In this document: positions 9,688-58,132 of the stretch, one piece after another
Layout: the number at the start of each line of letters is the position of its first letter
Numbering within the stretch: the stretch's first letter is position 1
IMG/VR virus record: IMGVR_UViG_3300032282_004007
Location: 1-60,814 of that record
DNA: 60,814 nt
Strand: one strand, 5' to 3'
From: a virus
Lineage: Duplodnaviria; Caudoviricetes
Translations under genes and position numbers: made by a program
The notes under the pieces: model-generated
What the model saw: the letters and a program-made list of their open reading frames with translations, nothing else
Told to the model about the DNA's origin: nothing
Databases searched by the model: none

Positions 9688-9744
9688 GATAATTTTTGTG
9701 TATATTCTCCTTTAGAAATTCGGCGAGTTTCTATTTATATTAGT

Positions 9745-17376: not shown

Positions 17377-18282
17377 ATGGCAGTAGGTTCATACGGAATA
17401 ATTAGACCAGCAGACGTTTCACCAGAAGATGTTGAAATACTGTACCACTATGTGGAAAATAGGTCAACAGATTCCACCCCAATATTAAAAAAATTAACAT
17501 CAACAGACATTTTAACCCCGGTATTTCATAATAGTAATACTGGAGGTTTAAACGGTACTGAAATATTGGGAGGAATGTACAACTTAAAATTATTAGCCGA
17601 CGATTTTACAGATTTAGGTATATATACGTTACATATTCGCCCAAAACAGATCAGAGCAACAATTACTGACTGCGGAATATTAGCAGCACTACCTTCTGTT
17701 AGGGGGTTAGTGATCGACTTAAACGATATCGCATCTGACGATAGAAACAAATTTATACCACAAGGTCTTGTTGGGTATAGAATCGAATATATTGACGATA
17801 ATAACAGAAAAGTACCTAATTTCTATAGATTAGTCACATCTTCTTTTTATTGTGAACCAATAATATCTAACCTAACAAATTCTTCACAGAAGTCAATTAG
17901 ATATAGATATACCGACACAACAAGTAATTTGGTGTTTTTGACGTTAACTCCGTCATCTGCGCCTTCAAATAGACCAAATAGTATACCTTTTATCGGTAAA
18001 CCGACACAATCGATCATTTTAACAAATACTTTCTTTAACCCAACAACAGTTGAGATAGAAATGGTTGAACATGACGCATCGACACTTGCACATGCATTAT
18101 ATGGTAATCAAACCAAAGCGATTTCTAGTGGAATATACACTGTTTACGGTGACAATAATAACATTTACAAACAATTCAACCTTTACGAAGTTAAAGATGA
18201 ATTTAATGAGACATTATATGAGGTTCGTGAAGAAAGAACTAACATAGATGAGACCTTAAACTTTGATGATATCACAAAATAA
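17377..18282 (+). CDS. putative virion structural protein
   Basis: 301-aa ORF preceded by TATTTAT and TAATG-coupled to the giant gene. Confidence 0.6.
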   Translation: MAVGSYGIIRPADVSPEDVEILYHYVENRSTDSTPILKKLTSTDILTPVFHNSNTGGLNGTEILGGMYNLKLLADDFTDLGIYTLHIRPKQIRATITDCGILAALPSVRGLVIDLNDIASDDRNKFIPQGLVGYRIEYIDDNNRKVPNFYRLVTSSFYCEPIISNLTNSSQKSIRYRYTDTTSNLVFLTLTPSSAPSNRPNSIPFIGKPTQSIILTNTFFNPTTVEIEMVEHDASTLAHALYGNQTKAISSGIYTVYGDNNNIYKQFNLYEVKDEFNETLYEVREERTNIDETLNFDDITK

Positions 18283-21200
18283 TGGCAAAAAGGAAAGTAC
18301 CAAGTCAGGCGGCATCGGGAAAAGAAACATTTTCAGATAGTTTAATCGGGAGTCAAATTACCGATGGAACTAGTCAACTGACTAATAGTGTATTTGCTGT
18401 TGATAAAGTGATTCCTCAAAAAGACGCTAAATCATTTAAAACAGCCCCATTCTCAGATTTTTTAACTTTAGATGATTTAAAAATTGAAACAGATTCTCCA
18501 ACTACAGTAGCACAATCTACAGGAGAAAAAAGACCAATTAAGTTTAATGACTCTAAAAATGATGCTAGCAAATCTTTATTTGGTTCATTAAGAGAAAGAT
18601 TTGCGGTATCTACTGGTAGAATTATAAAAAATTTTCCAGCGGTTTTTATGGTTGACCCAACGTCACCAATCGCATCGTCAATTTATTCAGCAGAAAATAT
18701 TTCATATGATGTTTTAACCGATAGAACAACATTCACACTACAAACATCAATAATTTATAACCCATTGGATATTTCTTTTATTGCTCCAGTAGTGACAAAA
18801 GAAAATAATGAAGAAAACCCAATAAGAAAATTCTACTCTTCTTATAAAAAATATGTTTTAGATGTAAACGATGAAACGTATCCAATTGTATCTTATACTG
18901 AACCAGACACCAATAACCAAATAACATTAAAAGTTATTGGTAAAGCATTTACTGGCACCTCATATACAAATTCATATATTGTTAGACCTAGTAATGGAGT
19001 TGTTGAAGAGTTTTATATCGGTTTAGATGATTTAGAACAAACATTATTAAATAGAGAAACCTATCCAAAATATAAAGCAGGGTTTCAAGTCCCTAAAGAT
19101 ACTTTAGGTGGCGGTAAAACCGAACTTATAACAGAATATGCCACCTGGCCAATATCTAAAGACGGTTGGAACATTAAAATAGTCGGAGTTGATTTTGAAA
19201 CATATCTTGATACAGTTAATTCTTTAGCGATTGAGATTGATGATTATAAATCAAATTTAATTGTTAGATTTTTAACAGCACCACAACTTTTTGAATTTGA
19301 TACCGAAGACCAGAAGATGAATAAAATCTTCCAACTTTATGGTCAAAGTTTTGATAGGGTAAAAAAATATATAGACAACATTGCTTACATGCGTAATGTG
19401 AGTTATGACACTATTAACAACCTACCAGATGTTTTTTTAAAAAATTTAGCAAATACGTTAGGTTTAAATACTGTTAATTTATTTGATCAAAAAACATTAG
19501 AAGAGCAATTATATAATTTAGGTGGGCAAACATATCAAGGTGTACCCATAGGCAAAACATTAGTTGATGCTGAAATAGAATTTTATAGAAGAATTTTAGT
19601 TAACCTTGCGCACATCTATAAATCAAAAGGAACTAGAAGTAGTTTAGAATTTTTCTTAAAATTCATCGGTGCCCCCGATCCAATGATTAAGATTGATGAG
19701 TTTGTGTATAATGTTACGTCAAGCATACCAACAGGTAGAATCGAAAGCGACATTAACGAAGTTATACAAGGAGGTAAAGTCACCAAAATATTAGAATTCA
19801 ATCCAACAACATTTTCGTATGATATTAATGAAATTGTTGGTGGCAATGCTTTTAATGAGAGAACAGATTTTCCAGTTGATACTACAACAGGATTACCATC
19901 AGCACCAACAACAAACCAAGATAACATATTTTTCCAAATGGGTGCTGGCTGGTATGAGCAAACGTTAGATCATAGAGCACACGATATATTGAACACACAA
20001 AGTTCTATTACAACTGGAAGAACAAAAACTTTAATAACAAAATCAAAACCATTCACATATGGTGAAGATTACTATGATATATATAGAACCATCCCTGGGC
20101 TTGATTATGGTTATGATTTAAGAAACGCTATTGATAATGTTAAAGGGCAAGTTGTTGATGATTTAGACACAGCAAGATTAGTTTTAAACAGAAAAAATAT
20201 AAATGTATTTGTTTCAACCGCAAAAGCGATTGATTATGACATATGGAAAAAATCACAAAACTTAGATTTAACGTTTGGAACATTACCAGTACAAACTGGT
20301 GTAACATACGCTCAATTTACACAAGACCTATTAAGTCAACAAATAAAAAATTCTCATACAATAAAATATAAGAAAAATTACATTGTATTAGAAGAAATTT
20401 TTAGAGAATACTATTCACATCCAGGGTTTACATCATATGATTTTATTGATGTTTATAATTTTGTTGATGTAATGAGTCCTTATTGGACAAATATCTTAGA
20501 TCAGATAATTCCAGCAACAACATTATGGTTGGGTGGTAATTTGATTGAAAACAATATTTTAGGTAGACCAAAATATCCATACAGATTCCCATGTCAACCT
20601 ACTGAGTTTGTGGATAATTTATATCCTGACTTTGAAACAACAATTGAAGAAGATTTAGAAACTATTTTAGGTGGAGAAGAAAATCTAAGAGGTTTAATTA
20701 AATTTAGCGGCATAACTTATTCATTAGTTATTGATATTGATGGTGTTGAATATACGGGATCAACAACAGTTGATTTATTTGGTGAAACATTATTTGACAC
20801 ATTTACACCTGGTGCTACATGTACAGATTTAACAACATCATCAACCTATGTACCATTAATATGTGAATACAAAGATTGGATAAGTCCAGATATATCAGCA
20901 ATAAAAATCCAATGGAAAAACGCGTTAGCCAATTTAGTTGATGAAATTAACACAACCTACACTGGTTATACCGAAGGTTGTATACCAACTTATGAACCAT
21001 ATAACGAAATAACATCTGGGGCGACTTGTACCGGGTACACGCCAATAATTTCTTATGAAATTTTTACAGATGTGGATGGTATTGAAAAAATTAAATTTTA
21101 TTCATATAAAAATGGATATAATGAATGTACAATAAAAGATTATATAGATTTCTTTTTCTTGGCCGATTATATCTATACTCCACCAACATGTGAATTAGAA

Positions 21201-24200
21201 GTTTACGCAACAGCACCATGTGATGTTTTTGAATCAGGTACTGAAAATTGTAGATTAAAAAGTGACGTTTATCTTAATATAAGTGGCGCAACAGGAAATG
21301 AAGACGATATTTGGGGTGTAAACATTTTCTATAATTGTGATGAGAATTACAATGACGGAATTTCCCCAGTACAAATACAAAGATCCGTAATGGACCCATG
21401 TGTTTTTATTGTTAAAGATGTTTATGAAGATGGTGATATTAACGGTAATCCAATAGATTTAATTATTACTGATGCAGCAAACTGTGAACAAAAATTAAAA
21501 ATAGAAGGATTACAAATAAAGATAGAACACGATCCATATCCGTTATCAACATCTGGACGTAGTCACACACAATTATTTGAACTATCATCATTAGATGGTT
21601 ATGGTAACACAGTTTCAGTTATTTCTGGGGTTACATATTGTGACACATATACCGGTTATACAATCACACCTAAAATTCAATATAGACAAACTTTTAATTA
21701 CGGAATAAAAAAAGGAACGTTTGTATTGAAAGCAAGCGGAAGCACCATTAACATAGATACTTGGATAGATGTTCAAGACGCTATATCATCAGGTGTGATA
21801 ACTGAAACTTTAATCGAGAATATTGCTAATGGTGATTATTTGTTATCGGCAGAATTTTTAAATTGTCCATTCCCAACAAATGATTTTAGAAATATACCAA
21901 TAAGTGGTTACTCTTTTGGTTACAATTATAAATTAATACAAATTAATAATATTGATTGTTTAGGTTCAATTAAAAAACATATCATTAATAATGAATTTGA
22001 AGTTTTACCAACAACAGAATTAAGAATATATAGAGATGGTAAATTTATTAGTGAGTATCCAGAGAATTTAATTATTAAACCAGATACACCTATTGAACCA
22101 TGTTGTGATGTAGATGAATCATATTTTAATAATCACGGCGATTATCTTTTAGATCAAACCGGTTTCCCAATCGAAGTTGAAACAGTTGAATTAGATTATT
22201 GTTCTAGAAGTATTTTTTACCATTTAAATTTCATTGGTACTGGAGATGTTGTTTTATTTAACGGAAATAGCGATTCTCAAATATTAATGTCGTTTACACA
22301 AAATAAATTTAATAATCTTGATTTTGAATTAGAACAATTTTATGCAAATGGTTCATGTGTAAATGATTATAACCCAAGAGAGTATACTGGAGAAACTTGT
22401 AATAATACACCAGTTGTTAGTTGCGGCACGCACCATAGTAATGCTACACCAACACCTACACCAACAATTACACCAACGATCACACCTACATTTACGATTA
22501 CACCAACGCAATCTATTACACCAACGCAATCAGTTACACCAACCTTAACAATTACCCAATCAGTTACACCAACCTTAACAATTACCCAATCAGTTACACC
22601 AACTGAAACAGTAACACCAACTATAACATTAACTCCAACTTTAACTATTACTCAATCGATTACTCCAACACAGTCGATTACTCCAACATATACTATAACA
22701 CCAACTATAACACCAACACTAACAATAACACCAACCATAACATTAACTCCGACCCAAACTATTACACCAACATTGACTATAACACAGTCAATTACACCTA
22801 CTCAAACCATTACTCCGACTTATACTATCACACCAACTAAAACAATAACACCAACTGTAACAATTACTCAGTCGATAACACCAACTCAAACAATAACACC
22901 AACATATACTTTAACTCCAACATTAACTGAGACAGTTACGTTAACGCCAACTCAAACTATTACTCCGACTTATACATTAACGCCAACCTTAACTATAACA
23001 CAGTCAATAACACCAACGGAAACGTTAACACCTACGTATACTAGCACACCAACACTAACTGAAACAGTTACTTTAACACCAACACAAACCATCACACCAA
23101 CATATACGATTACTCCGACTGTAACAGAAACAATTACACTTACTCCGACTCAAACTATTACACCTACTGAGACAGTTACACCAACGTATACTATTACTCC
23201 AACTATCACACCTACATACACATTAACACCTACACTAACACAAACAGTTACACCAAGTTCAACTGAAACACCAACAGTCACACCTACGTTAACACCAACA
23301 TTGACTATAACACAGTCAATTACTCCAACTCAAACTATTACCCCAACTGAAACGCTTACGCCAACTATTACGTCTACATATACAATCACACCAACATATA
23401 CAATTACTCCGACCCAAACTATTACACCAACAGTAACAGAAACAATTACATTAACACCAACACAAACTATTACTCCAACTGAAACACTTACGCCAACAGT
23501 AACGATTACACAATCTATTACGCCTACATTTACGATTACACCAACGCAATCTATTACACCAACATTGACCATAACTCAATCAATAACACCTACGCAGACC
23601 ATAACACCAACGGAAACATTAACACCAACGGTTACTATAACTCAATCTATTACACCGACTCAAACTATAACACCAACTGAGACCCTTACGCCAACTATAA
23701 CAATTACTCAATCAGTAACACCTACTGAAACATTAACACCGACTATTACACCAACATACACTATCACACCAACATTGACTATAACACAGTCGATTACACC
23801 AACTGAGACACTTACGCCAACTTATACATTAACCCCAACACTTACACCAACACAAACTATAACTCCGACTCAAACTATAACTCCAACCTTAACAATTACT
23901 CAATCGATAACCCCAACTGAAACATTAACACCGACAGTAACAATTACTCAATCGATAACCCCAACTGAAACATTAACACCGACAGTAACAATTACTCAAT
24001 CGATAACCCCAACTCAAACTATCACACCAACTTATACGGTTACACCAACTATCACTCCAACGTTAACGATCACTCAATCGATAACACCAACTATTACGAT
24101 AACGCCGACTTATACTATAACACCAACATTAACAATCACCCCGACCGTTACGGAAACACTTACACCAACTGTAACAGAAACACTAACGCCAACATTGACT

Positions 24201-26912
24201 ATAACTCAGTCAATTACACCAACCTTTACTATCACACCAACTCAAACAATTACACCTACCTATACGTTAACACCAACAGTAACAGAAACAGTTACGTTAA
24301 CACCTACGCAGACCATAACACCAACGGAAACATTAACACCAACGTTAACGATAACTCAATCTATCACACCTACACAAACCATTACCCCAACTGAAACGTT
24401 AACTCCAACATTGACCATAACTCAGTCAATCACACCTACACAAACCATTACTCCAACTTATACGTTAACGCCAACAGTTACAGAAACTGTTACGTTAACA
24501 CCTACACAAACTATTACACCTACTTATACTATAACACCTACGTACACCATTACTCCAACTATTACCCCAACTGAAACTCTTACACCTACATTAACACAAA
24601 CAGTAACACCAAGTTCAACTGAAACCCCAACCCCAACACCAACCATTACACCAACTGTAACAATAACACAATCTATTACTCCAACTCAAACTATTACACC
24701 AACTGAAACACTTACACCTACTGTCACTATTACTCAATCAGTAACACCAACATATACTATTACACCAACCCAAACTATTACACCAACACTTACTGAAACT
24801 GTTACGTTAACACCTACTCAAACTATTACTCCAACTGAAACGTTAACACCAACATTAACGATAACACAATCTATTACACCAACATTTACCCTAACACCTA
24901 CGCAAACAATAACACCAACATTAACAATTACTCAATCTATTACACCAACCCAAACTATAACTCCAACTTATACTATAACACCAACAGTAACGCCTACAGA
25001 AACGTTAACACCAACATTAACGATTACTCAATCCATTACACCAACCCAAACTATAACTCCGACATATACTATAACTCCAACTTATACTATAACACCGACA
25101 ATCACACCAACCGAAACGCTAACACCAACATTAACGATAACACAATCTATTACACCAACCCAAACTATTACCCCAACTCAAACCATTACCCCAACATTAA
25201 CGATAACACAATCTATTACACCAACCCAAACTATTACCCCAACATATACTATAACCCCTACCATTACACCAACATATACCATTACACCAACATATACCAT
25301 TACACCAACTCAAACTATCACACCAACAGTTACTGAAACAATAACATTAACACCAACCCAAACTATTACACCAACTTATACGTTAACCCCAACCATAACA
25401 CCAACTCAAACAATTACACCAACACAAACAATTACTCCAACTCAAACAATTACACCAACATTTACACTAACACCTACATATACGTTAACACCAACCGTAA
25501 CACCAACTTGTGATTGTCCTGCTGGATTCACATTGACATCTGATGGAAATAGTTGTTATAGAGTTTTAACAACTAGCCCAACAAGTGTTGCAAGTTTATA
25601 TGTTGGTGACGGCGGTTTCAACTCATCATATGGTCAATATGGTGTTAAAATTTATAACGTAAATGATTATAACACATCTGGCGGATCTGTAAGTGGAAAT
25701 TTAGCATTTTCAGGATTTACTAATGCTTATGACTCGTCTAGCACAACATCTGTTGAGGCATATTGGGCTAGCGTTATGAACGATAATAATGTTTGGGTTT
25801 CAGGAAACACATACTGGCCTGGTCCAGCATCTCCAAATTATCCAAATTATATTAGTTTATGTGCAACATTTACTTTATCAACAACTAAGACATATTATAT
25901 TGGTGTTGCGGGAGACAACGATATTACAATTAAATTAAATTCTGTTACATTAGTTAACCAACCAGACAACCAACCAGTAGATAACTTCAGATTCTATCAC
26001 ATATATCCTGTAGTTTTACAAGCAGGACCAAATATTATTGAAATAGAAAACTGGAACAGAAGTAGTGTTGGTTCGTTCGTTGCTGAAATTTATGATAACA
26101 CATTATCACAACTTACATCAGCAACAAATAGTGCAATGGTAACTAAAGTATTCAGCACAGGTGATTATTTACCTGGAGGACCGCATGCTGGTGAACAATA
26201 CTGTAGTAACTATAGTTGTCCAGCAACATATAGTTTAGATTTCTCAAACCCAAGTATTCCAGTTTGTAAAAAAATTGAATATGTTGATTGCGGAGTTACA
26301 CCTACACCTACACCAACAGTTACTATAACACAATCTATCACACCTACGTTTACGTTAACTCCAACTCAAACAATCACACCAACCATAACATTAACACCTA
26401 CGTATACATTAACGCCAACTCAAACCATTACTCCAACACAAACAATTACGCCAACATATACTATTACTCCAACTCAAACAATCACACCAACCATAACATT
26501 AACACCTACGTATACGGTTACATCTTTCTATCAAAACTGTGGTTATGGTTGTCAAGCGTATGAAACAGACCAATCTTGTACGCCTTGTGATCCTGCTGGA
26601 ACACAAATCGATATTACTGGTTGCGCTGAATTCACAGGAGGAAATAGCGTAACAATGACCTTATTTAGTTCAGTGAACCTCTCAACAAATGTGACCGTAA
26701 ATTTTGTTATTGACGGTGATTTGGGTACACATATTGAAAGCAGTTTAGTAATATATAGCGGTACATCATATGCTTCTAATAATGTTGGCTTACACTACAA
26801 TTACGAAATAATTGGTAATGCTTACATCACCTCAGTAAGCCCAGCGTCTTATGGTAGTGAATCATATGTTCCTGGTACAGTAGCATATGGCTCAGGATGT
26901 ACTCCACCATAA
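18282..26912 (+). CDS. Giant baseplate wedge-like protein with Thr/Pro array, EGF-like Cys motifs and PA14-like domain
   Basis: LKNLANTLG...IYKSKGTRSSLEFFL (P2 gpI / T4 gp7-like); aa ~1389-2409 TxTPTx repeats; C-terminal YYIGVAGDND...YHIYPVVLQAG. Confidence 0.75.
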   Translation: MAKRKVPSQAASGKETFSDSLIGSQITDGTSQLTNSVFAVDKVIPQKDAKSFKTAPFSDFLTLDDLKIETDSPTTVAQSTGEKRPIKFNDSKNDASKSLFGSLRERFAVSTGRIIKNFPAVFMVDPTSPIASSIYSAENISYDVLTDRTTFTLQTSIIYNPLDISFIAPVVTKENNEENPIRKFYSSYKKYVLDVNDETYPIVSYTEPDTNNQITLKVIGKAFTGTSYTNSYIVRPSNGVVEEFYIGLDDLEQTLLNRETYPKYKAGFQVPKDTLGGGKTELITEYATWPISKDGWNIKIVGVDFETYLDTVNSLAIEIDDYKSNLIVRFLTAPQLFEFDTEDQKMNKIFQLYGQSFDRVKKYIDNIAYMRNVSYDTINNLPDVFLKNLANTLGLNTVNLFDQKTLEEQLYNLGGQTYQGVPIGKTLVDAEIEFYRRILVNLAHIYKSKGTRSSLEFFLKFIGAPDPMIKIDEFVYNVTSSIPTGRIESDINEVIQGGKVTKILEFNPTTFSYDINEIVGGNAFNERTDFPVDTTTGLPSAPTTNQDNIFFQMGAGWYEQTLDHRAHDILNTQSSITTGRTKTLITKSKPFTYGEDYYDIYRTIPGLDYGYDLRNAIDNVKGQVVDDLDTARLVLNRKNINVFVSTAKAIDYDIWKKSQNLDLTFGTLPVQTGVTYAQFTQDLLSQQIKNSHTIKYKKNYIVLEEIFREYYSHPGFTSYDFIDVYNFVDVMSPYWTNILDQIIPATTLWLGGNLIENNILGRPKYPYRFPCQPTEFVDNLYPDFETTIEEDLETILGGEENLRGLIKFSGITYSLVIDIDGVEYTGSTTVDLFGETLFDTFTPGATCTDLTTSSTYVPLICEYKDWISPDISAIKIQWKNALANLVDEINTTYTGYTEGCIPTYEPYNEITSGATCTGYTPIISYEIFTDVDGIEKIKFYSYKNGYNECTIKDYIDFFFLADYIYTPPTCELEVYATAPCDVFESGTENCRLKSDVYLNISGATGNEDDIWGVNIFYNCDENYNDGISPVQIQRSVMDPCVFIVKDVYEDGDINGNPIDLIITDAANCEQKLKIEGLQIKIEHDPYPLSTSGRSHTQLFELSSLDGYGNTVSVISGVTYCDTYTGYTITPKIQYRQTFNYGIKKGTFVLKASGSTINIDTWIDVQDAISSGVITETLIENIANGDYLLSAEFLNCPFPTNDFRNIPISGYSFGYNYKLIQINNIDCLGSIKKHIINNEFEVLPTTELRIYRDGKFISEYPENLIIKPDTPIEPCCDVDESYFNNHGDYLLDQTGFPIEVETVELDYCSRSIFYHLNFIGTGDVVLFNGNSDSQILMSFTQNKFNNLDFELEQFYANGSCVNDYNPREYTGETCNNTPVVSCGTHHSNATPTPTPTITPTITPTFTITPTQSITPTQSVTPTLTITQSVTPTLTITQSVTPTETVTPTITLTPTLTITQSITPTQSITPTYTITPTITPTLTITPTITLTPTQTITPTLTITQSITPTQTITPTYTITPTKTITPTVTITQSITPTQTITPTYTLTPTLTETVTLTPTQTITPTYTLTPTLTITQSITPTETLTPTYTSTPTLTETVTLTPTQTITPTYTITPTVTETITLTPTQTITPTETVTPTYTITPTITPTYTLTPTLTQTVTPSSTETPTVTPTLTPTLTITQSITPTQTITPTETLTPTITSTYTITPTYTITPTQTITPTVTETITLTPTQTITPTETLTPTVTITQSITPTFTITPTQSITPTLTITQSITPTQTITPTETLTPTVTITQSITPTQTITPTETLTPTITITQSVTPTETLTPTITPTYTITPTLTITQSITPTETLTPTYTLTPTLTPTQTITPTQTITPTLTITQSITPTETLTPTVTITQSITPTETLTPTVTITQSITPTQTITPTYTVTPTITPTLTITQSITPTITITPTYTITPTLTITPTVTETLTPTVTETLTPTLTITQSITPTFTITPTQTITPTYTLTPTVTETVTLTPTQTITPTETLTPTLTITQSITPTQTITPTETLTPTLTITQSITPTQTITPTYTLTPTVTETVTLTPTQTITPTYTITPTYTITPTITPTETLTPTLTQTVTPSSTETPTPTPTITPTVTITQSITPTQTITPTETLTPTVTITQSVTPTYTITPTQTITPTLTETVTLTPTQTITPTETLTPTLTITQSITPTFTLTPTQTITPTLTITQSITPTQTITPTYTITPTVTPTETLTPTLTITQSITPTQTITPTYTITPTYTITPTITPTETLTPTLTITQSITPTQTITPTQTITPTLTITQSITPTQTITPTYTITPTITPTYTITPTYTITPTQTITPTVTETITLTPTQTITPTYTLTPTITPTQTITPTQTITPTQTITPTFTLTPTYTLTPTVTPTCDCPAGFTLTSDGNSCYRVLTTSPTSVASLYVGDGGFNSSYGQYGVKIYNVNDYNTSGGSVSGNLAFSGFTNAYDSSSTTSVEAYWASVMNDNNVWVSGNTYWPGPASPNYPNYISLCATFTLSTTKTYYIGVAGDNDITIKLNSVTLVNQPDNQPVDNFRFYHIYPVVLQAGPNIIEIENWNRSSVGSFVAEIYDNTLSQLTSATNSAMVTKVFSTGDYLPGGPHAGEQYCSNYSCPATYSLDFSNPSIPVCKKIEYVDCGVTPTPTPTVTITQSITPTFTLTPTQTITPTITLTPTYTLTPTQTITPTQTITPTYTITPTQTITPTITLTPTYTVTSFYQNCGYGCQAYETDQSCTPCDPAGTQIDITGCAEFTGGNSVTMTLFSSVNLSTNVTVNFVIDGDLGTHIESSLVIYSGTSYASNNVGLHYNYEIIGNAYITSVSPASYGSESYVPGTVAYGSGCTPP
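22446..25508 (+). repeat. ~3.06-kb coding array of degenerate T-x-T-P-T-x repeats
   Basis: Continuous ACN-CCN-ACN repeats, AC-rich and G-poor; a second short copy at ~26298-26522. Confidence 0.97.
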
Positions 26913-32051: not shown

Positions 32052-32651
32052 ATGGATACAAAATTGAAAAACAAATCTAAGATTTTAGGGTTAGATATTT
32101 CTACTAAAACAATTGGATGGGCATTATTTGACCTAACCGGTAAAAAATTATTAGAATTAACCCATTTTTCGCCTAAAATTAAACCACAACCAGAAGATAA
32201 GTTAGAAGAACTTATTAAAAAGGCGGATGCTTTTAAGGCACAATTAGAAAAATACAGAGATTTAGGTATTTTAAAGGTTGTAATTGAAGAACCCCTATTA
32301 AATTCAAATAATATCTATACTGTTGGTACGCTATTGCGTTATAACACCATGATCTGTAAAGCAGTTTATGATGTGTTAGGCCTTGTGCCGACCTTTATAT
32401 CCACATACAATGCCAGAAAATATGCTTTTCCGGATTTAGTTAACCTTAATGATAAAGGTAAAAATGTTTTATTCGGAGGTTATCCCAAAGATATTGACAA
32501 AAAGCACGTCATTTGGGAACATGTTAATGCTGTTTGCCCTGAGGTAAAATGGTTATACGGTAAGACAGGACAACTAAAGAAAGAATGTTATGATATGTCT
32601 GATGCTGCAACGGCAGTCATTGGTTATATCAATAAGTTAAAAGCGGAATAA
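32052..32651 (+). CDS. ruvC: RuvC-like Holliday junction resolvase
   Basis: ILGLDISTKTIGWA, VVIEEP, DMSDA acidic catalytic motifs. Confidence 0.8.
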   Translation: MDTKLKNKSKILGLDISTKTIGWALFDLTGKKLLELTHFSPKIKPQPEDKLEELIKKADAFKAQLEKYRDLGILKVVIEEPLLNSNNIYTVGTLLRYNTMICKAVYDVLGLVPTFISTYNARKYAFPDLVNLNDKGKNVLFGGYPKDIDKKHVIWEHVNAVCPEVKWLYGKTGQLKKECYDMSDAATAVIGYINKLKAE

Positions 32652-32703
32652 ATTCGGCAAGTATCATTTTTTTTAACACTTTTTTTGTGCTATATTTATA
32701 CTT

Positions 32704-32773
32704 ATGACGGAGCATGTAGAAATACATGTTTAGTTGGTGTTCCCCCGGGGTGGTGTCCGGGGGATTTTTTTTT
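32704..32773 (+). ncRNA. candidate small RNA (or 9-codon micro-ORF MTEHVEIHV) with its own promoter and terminator
   Basis: TATTTAT at 32693-32699; AGCATGTA-gaaa-TACATGTT GNRA hairpin; TCCCCCGG/CCGGGGGA stem plus T9. Confidence 0.55.
32741..32773 (+). terminator. Rho-independent terminator
   Basis: 8-bp GC-rich stem followed by 9 T. Confidence 0.85.
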
Positions 32774-32800
32774 AACATATTTTTTCTGTATATTAATCTC

Positions 32801-33739
32801 ATGCCTCAAACCGAGTTAGATTATTTACCTATAATTGAGATCCTAGAAGAAATCCTAGGAGAACCTCATATGCACAATGATTACAAGTGCCAAATCTCAT
32901 TTGACTGTCCGGTATGTTCATATGATTTAAAGGGTTTAGATGAAGGTGATGGTAAGGGGAATTTGGAGGTAAATTATCGTTTTGGCGTTTATAAATGCTG
33001 GGCTTGTGGTGAAACTAACAACACACATGGAAACATTTATAAACTTATAAAAAAATACGGAACCCAAAGGCATCTTAAAAAATATGAACTATTAAGGCCA
33101 GACGAAATCGAGGAGTTTAGAAAAGTAACCAAAGTTGCTAGATTACCAAAGGAATTTATTTCATTAACCAATGTAAGTGCAGGTTTAAAACTTACGCATT
33201 ACTATAGACAAGCGATGAATTACTTGAAAACTAGAAATGTTACTGATGAAATGATATTAAGATATAACATAGGGTTTGCGTATGATGGCCTGTATGCTAA
33301 TAGAATTATTATCCCATCATATGACTCAGAAATGAAATTAAATTATTTCATTGCTAGATCTTACTTAACCAAAACAAAATTAAAATATAAAAATCCAGAT
33401 GTTAGAAAAGAAATAATCATATTCAATGAACATCTACTCAATTGGGATGAAACTATTTATATTGTTGAGGGAGCATTTGATAGCATATTTGTACCAAATT
33501 CAATCCCATTATTAGGTAAGGTTATGAGCGATTATGTATTTAGCAAAGTATATGAGAACGCTAAAAAAGTAGTTGTGTTATTAGATGGTGATGCGTGGAA
33601 TGATGCACAAAGAATCTATGACAAACTAAACGGCGGAAATTTATTTGGTAAAGTATGGATTGTTAGATTACCTGACGATAGCGACATTGCCGATTTACAA
33701 GGAAATTTAGAAAATTATCAACCATTTCAATTATATTAA
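32801..33739 (+). CDS. DNA primase (Zn finger + TOPRIM)
   Basis: CPVC...CWAC zinc finger, RIIIPSYD, YFIARS, KYKNP, IVEGAFD, LDGDA; start moved to ATG 32801. Confidence 0.9.
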   Translation: MPQTELDYLPIIEILEEILGEPHMHNDYKCQISFDCPVCSYDLKGLDEGDGKGNLEVNYRFGVYKCWACGETNNTHGNIYKLIKKYGTQRHLKKYELLRPDEIEEFRKVTKVARLPKEFISLTNVSAGLKLTHYYRQAMNYLKTRNVTDEMILRYNIGFAYDGLYANRIIIPSYDSEMKLNYFIARSYLTKTKLKYKNPDVRKEIIIFNEHLLNWDETIYIVEGAFDSIFVPNSIPLLGKVMSDYVFSKVYENAKKVVVLLDGDAWNDAQRIYDKLNGGNLFGKVWIVRLPDDSDIADLQGNLENYQPFQLY

Positions 33740-40252: not shown

Positions 40253-40279
40253 TTTTTAGGTTAAGTAATAAATAAAATT

Positions 40280-40306
40280 GGGAGGTGCTTACACTTCCCT
40301 TTTTTT
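40280..40306 (+). terminator. Rho-independent terminator
   Basis: GGGAGGTG-ctta-CACTTCCC plus T7. Confidence 0.8.
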
Positions 40307-40327
40307 ATTTTTATATTATATTTAATA

Positions 40328-40402
40328 TTAGACCTTGTGGTTGAATCGGAAGTGTCCTTGTGGCATTTGAGTTGGAATTGATACCAACAAATTCGGGTTC
40401 AA
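40328..40402 (+). ncRNA. structured 5' leader (three-way junction) with an arm complementary to 41228-41242
   Basis: TTGAATCGGAA/TTCGGGTTCAA outer stem, AGTGTC/GGCATT and GTTGG/CCAAC inner hairpins. Confidence 0.55.
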
Positions 40403-40423
40403 ATACAAAAAAATATAAGGAAA

Positions 40424-41218
40424 ATGAAACAAACTATTTGGGTGACATCCTTGTCACGACCACAATCTTTTATTACCAAGAGTAAACAAAGATTAAAACA
40501 GTACATTGATACTGTCTATTTAAAAAACGGAGACGAGTTCGAAATTGAACTTTTCAATCCCACGCAAAATAAAATTTTAGCAAAAATCGAGATGAATGGT
40601 AATACCATTGGTAATGGTATTATACTTCGTCCAGGTGAACGTGTATTCCTTGAAAGGTATCTCGATGAAGCAAAGAAGTTTTTGTTCGAAACATACGTTG
40701 TAAATGATAATAATGAGGAAGTACAACAAGCGATTGCAAATAATGGTGATGTTGTTATTAAATTTTATGACGAAATAAAATTACCATCATATTATAGCAG
40801 TGGTTCCAGCACAATAACAATTAGCAATCCGGCTTGGATAAATACAGGTACACCATATTATGGTAATACTTTTACCACAACATCTACCGGTACAAACACG
40901 TTTTATAACACTTCGTTAACCAGCGGAACATTTAGTGCCTCAAATACGTTCTTAAATAATCCGGACAAAGTTAAAAAATCAACAAGACAATTTGAAACGG
41001 GTAGAGTGGAAAAAGGTTCAGAGTCCAACCAATCATTTGTGGAAGGTAATGCTAGATTTAATTCCTACCCAATTGAAACAAATTGGTGGAAAATCAAACC
41101 TCAATCAGAAAAGTTATATGTAACTAAGGATGATTTGATGATTTATTGTACCGAGTGCGGCTCAAAACGCAAAAAAGATACACATAAGTTCTGTCCACAA
41201 TGCGGAACAAAGTTCTAA
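40424..41218 (+). CDS. hypothetical protein with C-terminal zinc ribbon
   Basis: Beta-rich N-terminal domain, S/T-rich linker, CTECG...FCPQCG. Confidence 0.8.
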   Translation: MKQTIWVTSLSRPQSFITKSKQRLKQYIDTVYLKNGDEFEIELFNPTQNKILAKIEMNGNTIGNGIILRPGERVFLERYLDEAKKFLFETYVVNDNNEEVQQAIANNGDVVIKFYDEIKLPSYYSSGSSTITISNPAWINTGTPYYGNTFTTTSTGTNTFYNTSLTSGTFSASNTFLNNPDKVKKSTRQFETGRVEKGSESNQSFVEGNARFNSYPIETNWWKIKPQSEKLYVTKDDLMIYCTECGSKRKKDTHKFCPQCGTKF

Positions 41219-41240
41219 TAATAAACTAATCACAAGGTCT

Positions 41241-41267
41241 AAGCGGGGTACTTTTTGTACCCCGTTT
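41241..41267 (+). terminator. terminator-like hairpin
   Basis: AAGCGGGGTAC-ttttt-GTACCCCGTTT. Confidence 0.75.
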
Positions 41268-41289
41268 GTATTTATATTAAAATACGCAT

Positions 41290-45872: not shown

Positions 45873-46219
45873 AATTCCTATCAGAAGAAATAGTTTCAAC
45901 CCCTACTAATACACCAACAGAAACACCCACACCAACACCAACTATAACTCCAACAGAAACTGTTACGCCTACCCCTACTAACACACCAACAGAAACTGTT
46001 ACACCAACACCAACAATAACACCAACCGATCTTCAAGAAGTGGATTCATTGTATCTAGAAGACGGAGAATTACCAGTTGAATTAAAAGAAGAAGAAACAC
46101 CAGCCGAGATTACATATGATGAAGATGGGGTTAATAATGCGTTTATTCCAATCATAAGGCCAACAAGTAAAATTATTCAGAGAAATGTTAGCAATTCGAA
46201 ACGTAGAGGTTTTAGATAA
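45866..46219 (+). CDS. -1 frame extension of 44436-45872 (117 aa, Thr/Pro repeats, no Met)
   Basis: [30 protein letters not shown]...RRGFR*, opening at the A AAA AAG heptamer 45860-45866. Confidence 0.7.
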
Positions 46220-55822: not shown

Positions 55823-58132
55823 ATGGCACAAATAATTAAACACAGAAGGGGTGGGATCACGCAACTTAAAGACGTTACAGCGAGAATAGGTGAAGTGGTG
55901 ATGGCTACCGGTTCAATAAGCGACTTAAACGGTCCCTTTTTATTCGTCGGTGAATCCGAAGGTGTTGCAGGCGCTTATCGTCCAGCATCTAAGATCTACC
56001 AAGGAACAACAGCGCCTACTCTAACAGCAGGTTCACACGGATCGGTATTAGATGGTACTCCGTTCTATGCTGCGGGGAATAAATCATTCTACATTTTAAG
56101 CCAAGCAGGTAATAGTAGAATAAATTTAACAGGTAATATTGAAGGAAACACAATTTCAGGTGTAACAATCAATAACCTAACTGGTAGTATCGGTACTTTT
56201 GATACTTACGTATCTGCATCAGCAGTTAACGTTACTGGTAACACACAAATAGGCGGTACTTTAACGGTTCAGGGCGCAACAAGTATTAACGATGACTTAT
56301 ATATTACAGGTAACACATACCAAACTGGTTCGATTTATCTTACAGGTGATGTTGTTTTATCCGGTAGCATTAATATTGGCGACAATATTAGCACAGACAT
56401 TATTAACTTCCAAGGAGAGGTTAGTTCGTCAATTATACCAAAATTAAATAATACATTTGATTTAGGTTCACCAACAAATGCTTGGCAAGATCTTTATGTT
56501 AGCGGAACTGCACATATTGAAAATATTTCTATCGGTGGAATCTCCACAACAAATTTATATCTTCCTGGCGATTTAGTGGTAAGTGGTACAACAATATTGT
56601 CTGGTTCAGTCCACATTGAAAACACATTAAATGTATCAAGCAGTGCAGCAATAACTGGCGGATTATATGTTGGTGGAGATTTTACAGCCAACGGTAGTAA
56701 TTCGACACTTACAGCAAATTATGGTGGTAATAGCATCTCATTAAATACATATAATGGTGCAACTATTAATTTATCTGGCCCAACAAATATTAATGGTGAT
56801 ACTAGTGTAACTGGCGCGTTAAATGTTGGTGGTAACACAAATTTTAGTGGATCAGTTTACGTTGAGGATTTAACTCAAAAAAGATTGGTTGTTGTTGGTG
56901 CGGATGGTTTATTAACCGATTATAGTGGTTTAACTTTCGATAATGGTAACTTAAATGTTTCAGGAGCAATCGAAGTAACAAATATTCAAGGTACTGGTTC
57001 ATTATATTTGAAACCTGACCAAGCCGACGGAAGATATTTTGAAATTTATAACACAGGTGCAAGTGATACGCACATTAAATCTAGTGGTGGCTTAAGTTTC
57101 TTTGGTGATGATACGAATTACTTAAAAGTCGACGACTATTCACAAACAGCAACACTTGTTGGTGTAAATGGTGTAATTGTTAGTTCTTCATTACAAGTAA
57201 CAGGTTCAGTGTTCACTGACAAAATTTTAGGTACTGGTTCACTTTATTTACAACCCGATCAAATCGACGGAAGATATTTTGAAATTTATAACACAGGCGC
57301 AAGTGATGTACACATTAAATCTAGTAATGGTTTAAGTTTCTTTGGTGATGATACCAATTACTTAATGATTAATGATAGTGCACAAACAGTAACAATTGTT
57401 GGTGTAAATGGTGTAAACATTAGTTCTTCATTAACTGTTACTGGGGCAACAACAATACATGGTGATGAAACCGTTAATGGTATTTTAACTGTTACAGGTA
57501 ACACTCAATTAGGTGGTAACTTATACATTTCTGGAACATTAGAGGTTTTAGGTTCTGCAACTGAAGTACACATTCAATCACAAGTTGTTGAGTTGGATGA
57601 TAACATCATCAGATTAAACGCTTATTCTCCATTTGAAAGGTATGCTGGATTTGAGGTTATGGATTCTGGTTCTTCTGGAATTTCTGCTTCAATGCTTTGG
57701 GATTCTTTAAATGATTACTGGATGTTTGTTTCAGCAAGTGGTCAAACAAGTAAATTTGTTGGTACAACAGCAGGAGCATATGGTTCAGAAGTTAGTTTAA
57801 CAACAAATAGCATTGTAAAAGCAACCGGAGCAAGCACAATTGGAGATAGTTTATTGGTTGACAACGGTACAACATTATCTTACAACACAAATAAGTTTAT
57901 TATAACGGGTTCAACAGGTGAAACCTTAATTTACGGTAATGTGACATTAAGTGCTGTTGGTGGTACTGATGCGGGTACAAAAACATCTGCTATCATGTTC
58001 AGAAACTCTTCAAATGTTCTTGGTTATGTATCTACAACTACAGGAACTGTTGAAACAAATGCTTTACTTGGTTATAAACAATCAGATGGAACATTAGTAT
58101 TCTCAGATTTAATTGACGGAGGTTCATACTAA
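55823..58132 (+). CDS. tail fibre protein with internal duplication
   Basis: MAQIIKHRRG N-terminus, G.L.V.G repeats, FDLGSPTNAW, ends IDGGSY. Confidence 0.75.
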   Translation: MAQIIKHRRGGITQLKDVTARIGEVVMATGSISDLNGPFLFVGESEGVAGAYRPASKIYQGTTAPTLTAGSHGSVLDGTPFYAAGNKSFYILSQAGNSRINLTGNIEGNTISGVTINNLTGSIGTFDTYVSASAVNVTGNTQIGGTLTVQGATSINDDLYITGNTYQTGSIYLTGDVVLSGSINIGDNISTDIINFQGEVSSSIIPKLNNTFDLGSPTNAWQDLYVSGTAHIENISIGGISTTNLYLPGDLVVSGTTILSGSVHIENTLNVSSSAAITGGLYVGGDFTANGSNSTLTANYGGNSISLNTYNGATINLSGPTNINGDTSVTGALNVGGNTNFSGSVYVEDLTQKRLVVVGADGLLTDYSGLTFDNGNLNVSGAIEVTNIQGTGSLYLKPDQADGRYFEIYNTGASDTHIKSSGGLSFFGDDTNYLKVDDYSQTATLVGVNGVIVSSSLQVTGSVFTDKILGTGSLYLQPDQIDGRYFEIYNTGASDVHIKSSNGLSFFGDDTNYLMINDSAQTVTIVGVNGVNISSSLTVTGATTIHGDETVNGILTVTGNTQLGGNLYISGTLEVLGSATEVHIQSQVVELDDNIIRLNAYSPFERYAGFEVMDSGSSGISASMLWDSLNDYWMFVSASGQTSKFVGTTAGAYGSEVSLTTNSIVKATGASTIGDSLLVDNGTTLSYNTNKFIITGSTGETLIYGNVTLSAVGGTDAGTKTSAIMFRNSSNVLGYVSTTTGTVETNALLGYKQSDGTLVFSDLIDGGSY
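56984..57445 (+). repeat. 240-bp (80-aa) tandem duplication inside tail fibre gene
   Basis: GTGSLYL.PDQ.DGRYFEIYNTGASD.HIKSS.GLSFFGDDTNYL at ~56990 and ~57230. Confidence 0.92.

Follow-up and report, generated by a model that had tools for sequence, protein, structure and literature searches.

Between the RuvC-like resolvase gene and the DNA primase gene of the viral contig IMGVR_UViG_3300032282_004007 (Caudoviricetes) lies a short unit that is very probably a conserved functional RNA element. The contig is 60.8 kb long and estimated to be 18% complete; its whole length is called the window here, and its + strand holds essentially all genes. The element appears to be the gene of a small non-coding RNA (sRNA) of about 65 nucleotides (nt), with its own promoter-like element and terminator. 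Comparison with related sequences assigns it to a previously undescribed RNA family found before primase in uncultured aquatic phages of 250-330 kb; no comparable RNA was met in a full-text literature search limited to titles and abstract openings. Transcripts of the phage's own threonine-proline (Thr-Pro) repeats are tentatively proposed as the partner of this RNA.

The unit consists of the following parts:
32668..32702, + strand: promoter-like region with a T-run or -35-like element and a -10-like TATATTTAT at 32691-32699, which includes TATTTAT at 32693-32699
32705..32773, + strand: predicted small RNA of ~65-69 nt, with a putative 5′ end at ~32704-32707 and the 3′ end within the T-run
32706..32735, + strand: hairpin 1, with basal GAC 32706-08 / GTT 32733-35, main stem 32710-18 / 32723-31 and GAAA loop 32719-22
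32731-32741, + strand: linker TAGTTGGTGTT, with the exposed part GGTGT at 32736..32740; GTTGGTGT at 32733-40 is the reverse complement of ACACCAAC
32741..32764, + strand: G+C-rich terminator hairpin, with stem 32741-32749 / 32756-32764 and loop GTGGTG(T) 32750-32756; TGGTGT lies at 32751-32756
32765..32773, + strand: T9 run, the terminator tail, which also serves the primase promoter-like element as its T-tract and is kept in the family

An initial annotation of the window had described TATTTAT, a GAAA-capped hairpin, TAGTTGGTGTT and a GC-rich terminator with TGGTGT in its loop, and all of these are present at the positions listed; the hairpin, given there as 32711-32730, is contained in the stem 32710-32731. 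The fold predicted for the + strand has an energy of -30.2 kcal/mol (z -4.4 to -4.8 relative to shuffles). The terminator stem has 9 bp, 7 of them G-C, with a 6-nt loop followed by T9; a G+C-rich hairpin directly before a U-run is the arrangement of an intrinsic (Rho-independent) terminator. If the RNA starts at about 32705, GAC is joined to GTT in the minimum-energy fold, and only GGTGT is predicted to be single-stranded. The same basal GAC/GTT pairing appears in the folds of six members with the putative 5′ end, and the basal helix is 87% paired across the family; since its paired columns are nearly invariant, it is plausible rather than proven. The linker, which had been described as unpaired, is predicted to be so in its GGUGU part only; its GUU probably pairs with the conserved 5′ GAC, so that the exposed linker would shrink to GGUGU instead of 11 nt. 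Similar GGUGU motifs are present at two sites, in the linker and in the terminator loop.

Primase relatives were compared at 37 viral-contig loci and 80 metagenome-contig loci. A covariance model, R1, built from 11 sequences, scores 32703-32773 of the window at 87 bits (E 2e-15). R1 places the unit directly before primase at 18 of the 37 viral-contig loci (E<=1) and upstream of primase at 70 of the 80 metagenome loci (E<0.01). A 19th viral-contig member, L015 (E 0.12), was recognised by eye, as were variants at the further metagenome loci L241, L243, L262, L278, L293 and L295; by the same inspection, L260 and L297 are degenerate, L272 has no upstream sequence and L296 has no unit. Some members contain insertions: about 50 nt are inserted inside hairpin 1 in L301:1350-1474 and L308:1343-1462, an insertion in L243:1326-1459 pairs GGTTGG with CCAACC, and in L280:558-628 about 870 nt separate the RNA unit from primase.

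At the genome level, the sRNA-bearing set comprised the window, G001, G003, G004 and G005, and G007 was the sRNA-less relative fetched. Four of five sRNA-bearing genomes have a single strong R1 match each, and the fifth, G005, has one of only E 0.12. Second copies were not found in five sRNA-bearing genomes, the weak extra matches (E 0.3-0.6) being ordinary terminators. The RNA is missing from a clade at 46-52% primase identity; the sole match in G006-G010 (E 0.037) is unlike the motif. The nearest cultured primase relative in a protein search belongs to Flavobacterium phage immuto (33% identity), where primase is preceded by a plain terminator only and no R1 match is better than E 0.2 with filters off. 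A nucleotide search of a phage collection with the window gave no match. R1 had no match in 62 stretches (L039-L100) taken from a DNA pattern scan whose pattern was one letter too long. A pattern scan of bacterial genomes, which does not establish absence, returned at least 120 stretches, mostly from high-G+C organisms; among the matches listed, one precedes a T-run, with an unconvincing stem. Rfam 15 gave no matches at gathering thresholds over the whole window, and a permissive scan of 32500-32900 (E<=10) gave 13 sub-threshold matches, none of them credible, the best with 27.7 bits against a threshold of 60.

Covariation was evaluated in 60 distinct sequences, using an alignment fitted to the model, which somewhat favours pairing. 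In this set, 96.5% of pair cells are paired (n=60), compared with 62.8% after shuffling and at most 54% in slid-partner controls; double changes are found in 16 of 17 pairs, and none of 500 shuffles reaches the observed covariation. In the main stem of hairpin 1, 95.2% of cells are paired and both sides change in 8 of 9 pairs; in the terminator stem the corresponding values are 97.9% and 8 of 8, and the arms switch wholesale between C-rich and G-rich versions across the family. Hairpin 1 contains two strongly conserved G-U pairs; the opposite strand would have A-C at these positions, which assigns the structure to the + strand and to RNA.

According to the per-column information, the stems vary and four blocks are fixed, namely the 5′ block, the linker, the terminator loop and the U-run. 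The consensus of the 5′ block is (A)GGACGGGAC. That of the linker is UUUGGUUGGU, extended to GGUUGGUGUU where the terminator starts with C's; its GUUGG is nearly invariant and is often found as GGUUGGUGU, and the seed variants include GGUUGGUGU and GGUUGGUA. The terminator loop, (R)GUGGUGU, is the most conserved stretch of the family, with about 2 bits per position; in distant members it reads (G/U)UUGGUGU, that is, UUGGUGU or GUUGGUGU. In L264 and L270, a separate hairpin displays UUUUGGUUGGUU (GGUUGG) in its loop. Hairpin 1 has a variable loop (GAAA, GUAA, GCAA, UGAAUAA, UUAAAA), usually of the GNRA type. The initial annotation had held that a drifting seed between conserved stems would speak against a regulatory RNA; the opposite was found, the G/U-rich motifs being fixed while the stems covary. 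An exposed conserved seed with drifting stems is the pattern of a trans-acting base-pairing sRNA.

In the promoter-like region of the window, TTAACA-18-TATACT scores 10/12 against the promoter consensus. Relatives have TTTAC(A/T)-N17-TATATT(TAT), followed about 7 nt further by GGACGG, at a fixed distance from the 5′ block (60 upstream regions). The promoter-like region of the RNA unit shares TATTTAT with the start-proximal motifs of structural genes. A further conserved element lies upstream:
32654..32661, + strand: upstream conserved motif TCGGCAAG, with family consensus CCGGCAAC, ~50 nt before the RNA 5′ end
The sequence (C/T)GGCAAC is present in most of the 60 distinct upstream regions. In relatives the CCGGCAAC motif falls within coding sequence, in one of two frames, and in the window it lies outside any gene, so it is a signal at the nucleic-acid level, not at the protein level; family-wide, it may be the binding site of a regulator. 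In the window, TCGGCGAG (9720-9727) and TCGGCAAG (32654-32661) each follow AAAT and precede a TATTTAT-type motif.

The proposed partner of the RNA is found in two repeat regions:
22444..25495, + strand: main Thr-Pro repeat array, tandem repeats inside the open reading frame (ORF) 18282-26912
45897..46026, + strand: smaller Thr-Pro repeat, which holds one of four 11-nt matches (45934-45944)
The RNA would act in trans, base pairing via its linker and terminator loop with ACACCAAC, a Thr-Pro-Thr codon unit that would fill the phage's own repeat-rich structural-gene transcripts. Both exposed motifs point to one repeat unit, since ACCAAC and ACACCA are overlapping halves of ACACCAAC. That the Thr-Pro transcripts are the partner is a serious possibility, held somewhat below even confidence.

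The linker core recurs across the arrays, as had been noted: ACACCAAC, whose exact reverse complement is GTTGGTGT, is the commonest + strand 8-mer of the window (100 copies), and 73 of its copies lie in the main array, with a modal spacing of 18 nt. The commonest 7-mer, ACACCAA (111 copies), is the reverse complement of TTGGTGT. The region 22401-25500 is composed of 41.5% A, 31.7% C, 5.6% G and 21.3% T, and 46% of its codons are for Thr and 15% for Pro. AACACCAACTA, the complement of the whole linker TAGTTGGTGTT, is found on the + strand at 22613, 22697, 24083 and 45934, the third of these having been overlooked in the initial annotation. Against these four sites shuffles expect 0.04, and none of 100 shuffles reaches 5, a test that is inflated because the sites fall within one repeat family. 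The 11-nt match itself is specific to the window's lineage.

Shorter words carry the comparison to the relatives. Ranked by observed/expected frequency, the reverse complement of TGGTGT takes place 3 (window), 5 (G001), 7 (G003), 5 (G004) and 1 (G005) of 4096, and that of GTTGGT places 1, 8 and 2 of 4096 in the three genomes whose sRNA carries GTTGGT; the median rank of all sRNA hexamers is 900-1950 of 4096 (reverse complements, composition-corrected). Among the 64 hexamers made of C and A only, the complements of loop and linker rank 1-4 and 1-7. For words of 7-9 nt, the linker 8-mer of the window is equalled in 1 of 100 permutations and the words of G005 in 0-2 of 100 (loop 9-mer 0/100), and G003 is borderline with 5-8 of 100 (loop 8-mer 5/100). 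The proposal that the RNA is antisense to the Thr-Pro mRNAs is partly supported: at the hexamer level a complementary target is found in five of five genomes (ranks 1-8), and at 7-9 nt it is found in two of the five, is borderline in one and is absent in two. Pairing is also favoured by the UUGGUGU-type loops of distant members, by GGUUGG displayed in L264 and L270 and by the TATTTAT that the promoter-like region has in common with structural genes.

Several observations weigh against pairing with the arrays. G001 and G004, whose sRNAs have the consensus sequence, show no enriched 7-9-mer: 10-98 of 100 permutations do as well, the best reverse-complement 7-mers rank 186-607 and the best 8-mers 1675-2092. 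The conserved 5′ G of the loop mismatches the arrays, and ACACCAC occurs once in the window. The exposed seed measures only 5-6 nt in the predicted fold unless the basal helix opens. All five sRNA-bearing genomes examined have Thr-Pro arrays, and three of the five sRNA-less relatives (G006-G010) retain ACACCAAC arrays as well, so the arrays do not need the RNA. Codon choice in the arrays is genome-typical (ACA 47% vs 53% in the rest of the genome, CCA 74% vs 64%); there is thus no sign that the RNA shapes the arrays, and ACACCA is the favoured coding of Thr-Pro. The rank statistics do not count as independent trials, because all genomes compared are relatives of each other and the match had been seen before it was tested. 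The match sites are situated far inside long ORFs, a location for which textbooks give no effect of pairing, and the unit is locked to primase, a linkage that action in trans does not explain.

Other targets and signals were considered. A search of the five phage genomes for a bipartite target (ACACCAC within 40 nt of CCAACC) gave no independent phage target: the matches comprise the sRNA's own antisense strand in G001 and in G004, a lone site on the minus strand of G001 and overlapping sites within an array of G005. Pairing with the start region of primase was rejected; exact 7-mer complements are present in 38 of 60 members, scattered and with no common site. In G001, G003 and G004 (L309-L343), (GGT)n runs place TGGTGG, GGTGGT and GTGGTG among the top over-represented hexamers of the coding strand; the runs probably represent Gly-rich repeats and would be another kind of low-complexity sequence besides the Thr-Pro arrays. 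A Chi-like function of GGTGGTG was likewise dismissed, the hexamers coming from (GGT)n and the strand bias of GTGGTGT being small (33/19, 34/26, 17/17), as was a G-quadruplex, the needed GG tracts being missing by eye in the window and several members. Complementarity of GACGGG plus GUGGUGU to the 16S decoding site is a doubtful reading, since the likely host group presumably differs there.

If the RNA does pair with the Thr-Pro transcripts, the geometry is of interest. With 16 nt between the two sRNA motifs and an array period of 18 nt, a single RNA could span adjacent repeats, and an array could be coated by many RNAs. For the mRNA, the outcome might be altered stability or shielding of a C-rich, G-poor stretch, or else the array might titrate the sRNA. 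A more specific version, in which the RNA is a phage-made coat that clamps adjacent ACACCAAC units along the 3-kb array and masks a loading zone for Rho or nucleases, is rather unlikely. Left unmasked, the array, with 32% C and 6% G, would be ideally suited to the loading of Rho or of nucleases, and the mRNAs protected would be long, lacking Shine-Dalgarno (SD) sequences and possibly leaderless late mRNAs. Such a coat would amount to anti-termination or protection by means of RNA, directed at coding sequence of low complexity.

The genes next to the RNA unit and the second promoter are as follows:
32052..32651, + strand: RuvC-like resolvase gene (PHROG 159, E 2.8e-6), the upstream neighbour in the window, not in all relatives
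32774..32800, + strand: primase promoter-like element (AACATA-T6-CTG-TATATTA), putative, ending 5 nt 5′ of the ATG; relatives are arranged alike, by eye
32801..33739, + strand: DNA primase gene (PHROG 47, E 2.7e-39; Pfam DNAG_N), the constant downstream neighbour of the RNA unit
The ruvC-primase spacer is 149 nt long and contains the RNA unit; its two similar promoter-like elements stand in tandem, spaced about 100 nt. The gene upstream of the unit differs in L005/6/9, L010/11 and L015/16. In nearly all members the unit immediately precedes the putative primase promoter, the sole exception being L280 with its ~870-nt insertion.

Only 5 of the 49 genes of the window have an SD-like tetramer, and the upstream regions are A-rich. 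TATTTAT occurs in 24 + strand copies and lies 4-24 nt 5′ of 10 of the 49 start codons (for example at 9732, 26948, 29890 and 44422). TATTTAT near starts, together with the few SD-like tetramers, suggests that many mRNAs of the phage may be leaderless or nearly so. The host probably comes from an SD-poor group such as Bacteroidota, as judged from the same tetramer count and from the Flavobacterium phage primase as nearest cultured relative.

A conserved small RNA whose G/U-rich motifs serve another partner, an RNA-binding protein or a host RNA, is a possible explanation, though held with less confidence than the Thr-Pro transcripts. A phage or host protein might be bound at the two GGUGU sites in a decoy- or sponge-like manner, the adjacent primase being a candidate; alternatively, the target might be an A/C-rich host RNA, for instance SD-less, A-rich start regions, which we take to be typical of the likely host group, and the complementarity to the arrays would then be a low-complexity by-product. 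This would account for what array pairing leaves unexplained, namely the invariant loop G and the lack of target enrichment at 7-9 nt in two of five genomes; the two similar motifs in exposed positions, the unit always adjoining primase, the SD-poor genes with A-rich upstream regions (5/49) and the primase of a Flavobacterium phage as nearest cultured relative (33% identity) also agree with it. Against it, the searches gave no candidate protein or host target and no bipartite complementary site elsewhere in the five phage genomes. The chance that the complements of both hexamers rank 1-8 is low, even given the G/U-only composition of the motifs (1-4 and 1-7 of 64), and an RNA that pairs at all would face competition from about 100 perfect 8-mer sites in late mRNAs. 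The opposite extreme, an ordinary terminator with chance features and a coincidental 11-nt match, is very improbable. The match was indeed found post hoc, and the arrays would give any sequence containing GTTGGTGT many matches, but 60 distinct sequences from viral-contig and metagenome records have kept the promoter geometry, the 5′ end, hairpin 1, the loop and the linker while the stems drift.

A mainly cis-acting unit is unlikely. It would be a strong insulator terminator with its own promoter at the border of the structural and replication genes, where primase transcription would be set by regulated read-through or by a factor recognising hairpin 1 and the loop, or else it would mark a transcription-activated replication start beside primase. 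Such roles fit the position directly before the primase promoter despite differing upstream genes (with the exception of L280), the T-run that is also the T-tract of that promoter, the tandem similar promoters about 100 nt apart and the usually GNRA-type loop of hairpin 1. A plain terminator, however, needs no invariant loop, primase has its own promoter-like element 3′ of the terminator, and no alternative antiterminator pairing that covaries with the highly variable terminator arms was seen by eye. The cumulative GC skew gives no origin signal at the unit, and is uninformative on the origin because the arrays dominate it, with a minimum near 29.3 kb driven by the main array. A lambda-type nut site (boxA-boxB) is similar in having a conserved 5′ single-stranded block, a hairpin that is usually GNRA-like and a terminator before the next genes. 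In the phage RNA, by contrast, the conserved hairpin loop expected of boxB is replaced by a variable hairpin 1 loop, conservation is strongest in the terminator loop, and no N-like protein was found.

Two further alternatives had been raised in the initial annotation. Pairing of UGGU with tRNA ACCA 3′ ends, by which the RNA would sense or shield tRNA ends in a T-box-like way, is highly improbable. The linker contains UGGU, as two tandem copies in the consensus UUGGUUGGU, and so does the loop; relatives encode about 20 tRNAs. The T-box leader (RF00230) likewise has GGUGGU/UGGU beside a terminator, but it is 200-300 nt long, unlike the ~65-nt phage RNA, which consists of two simple hairpins without a Stem I, a specifier loop or a competing antiterminator helix. 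Four base pairs alone would be too weak, as Stem I gives most of the affinity in T-boxes; the 13 Rfam matches (E<=10) do not include a T-box, ACACCA and CCAACC are missing from the phage tRNA clusters (0/2 clusters) and conservation reaches past UGGU to UGGUGU. The tRNA clusters, of 20-21 genes on the strand opposite to the sRNA, are located at L311:5593-10489 (G001) and L322:1493-6102 (G003) and include tRNA-Thr(UGU) and tRNA-Pro(UGG), which decode ACA and CCA; no tRNA genes were found in the window. The other suggestion, a leaderless 9-aa peptide (MTEHVEIHV, 32704-32733), can practically be dismissed. Its ATG stands 4 nt 3′ of TATTTAT, as in several genes of the phage, but is present in one of 60 distinct members: the closest relative, L002 (97% primase identity), reads AAG at this position, and AGG is usual in the others. 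The compensatory changes in the stems also scramble its codons.

In its overall plan, the RNA resembles trans-encoded sRNAs, including the prophage RNAs DicF and IpeX: they share a size of about 60-70 nt, an own promoter, a 5′ hairpin, a short single-stranded seed, a G+C-rich terminator with a long U tail and drifting stems. Unlike DicF/IpeX-type sRNAs, it comes from a giant phage of virulent type, its predicted partner is about 100 repeat sites in coding regions instead of the ribosome-binding region of a few mRNAs, and it has a second conserved motif in the terminator loop. The likely host group presumably lacks Hfq. CsrB/RsmZ decoy RNAs are similar in carrying one short motif in both loop and linker; the phage RNA differs in having two sites only and the motif UGGUG instead of GGA. 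The Bacteroides sRNA RteR (RF04181) also combines two hairpins with a terminator and has a linker rich in G and U, GUGGUUGU in its model. RteR is the third-listed sub-threshold Rfam match (E 0.38); with 22.3 bits, far under the gathering score of 72, the unit is not a member of that family.

Two other regions of the window have repeats. Inverted repeats AGACCTTGTGG / CACAAGGTCT at 40253-40423 / 41219-41289 flank gene 40424-41218, whose leader (~110 nt) lies after its own terminator and promoter and contains CCTTGTGG twice and a GAGTTGG...CCAAC hairpin; this could represent a mobile cassette or a further structured RNA. A tandem repeat at 56989-57433 (240 nt, 1.9 copies, 85% identity) lies within ORF 55823-58132.

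To our knowledge, few non-coding RNAs have come from giant phages and almost none from phages of SD-poor hosts. With 60 sequences, strong covariation and a fixed position, the RNA can join RNA family libraries and be used to annotate the clade. Should it not pair with the Thr-Pro repeats, the invariant UGGUG loop would suggest a protein or a host RNA as partner at the switch between the structural and replication modules. If the proposed pairing is correct, the virus would regulate or protect its own low-complexity coding regions via a multivalent small RNA, a mode of targeting that, as far as we know, has not been described for bacterial sRNAs.

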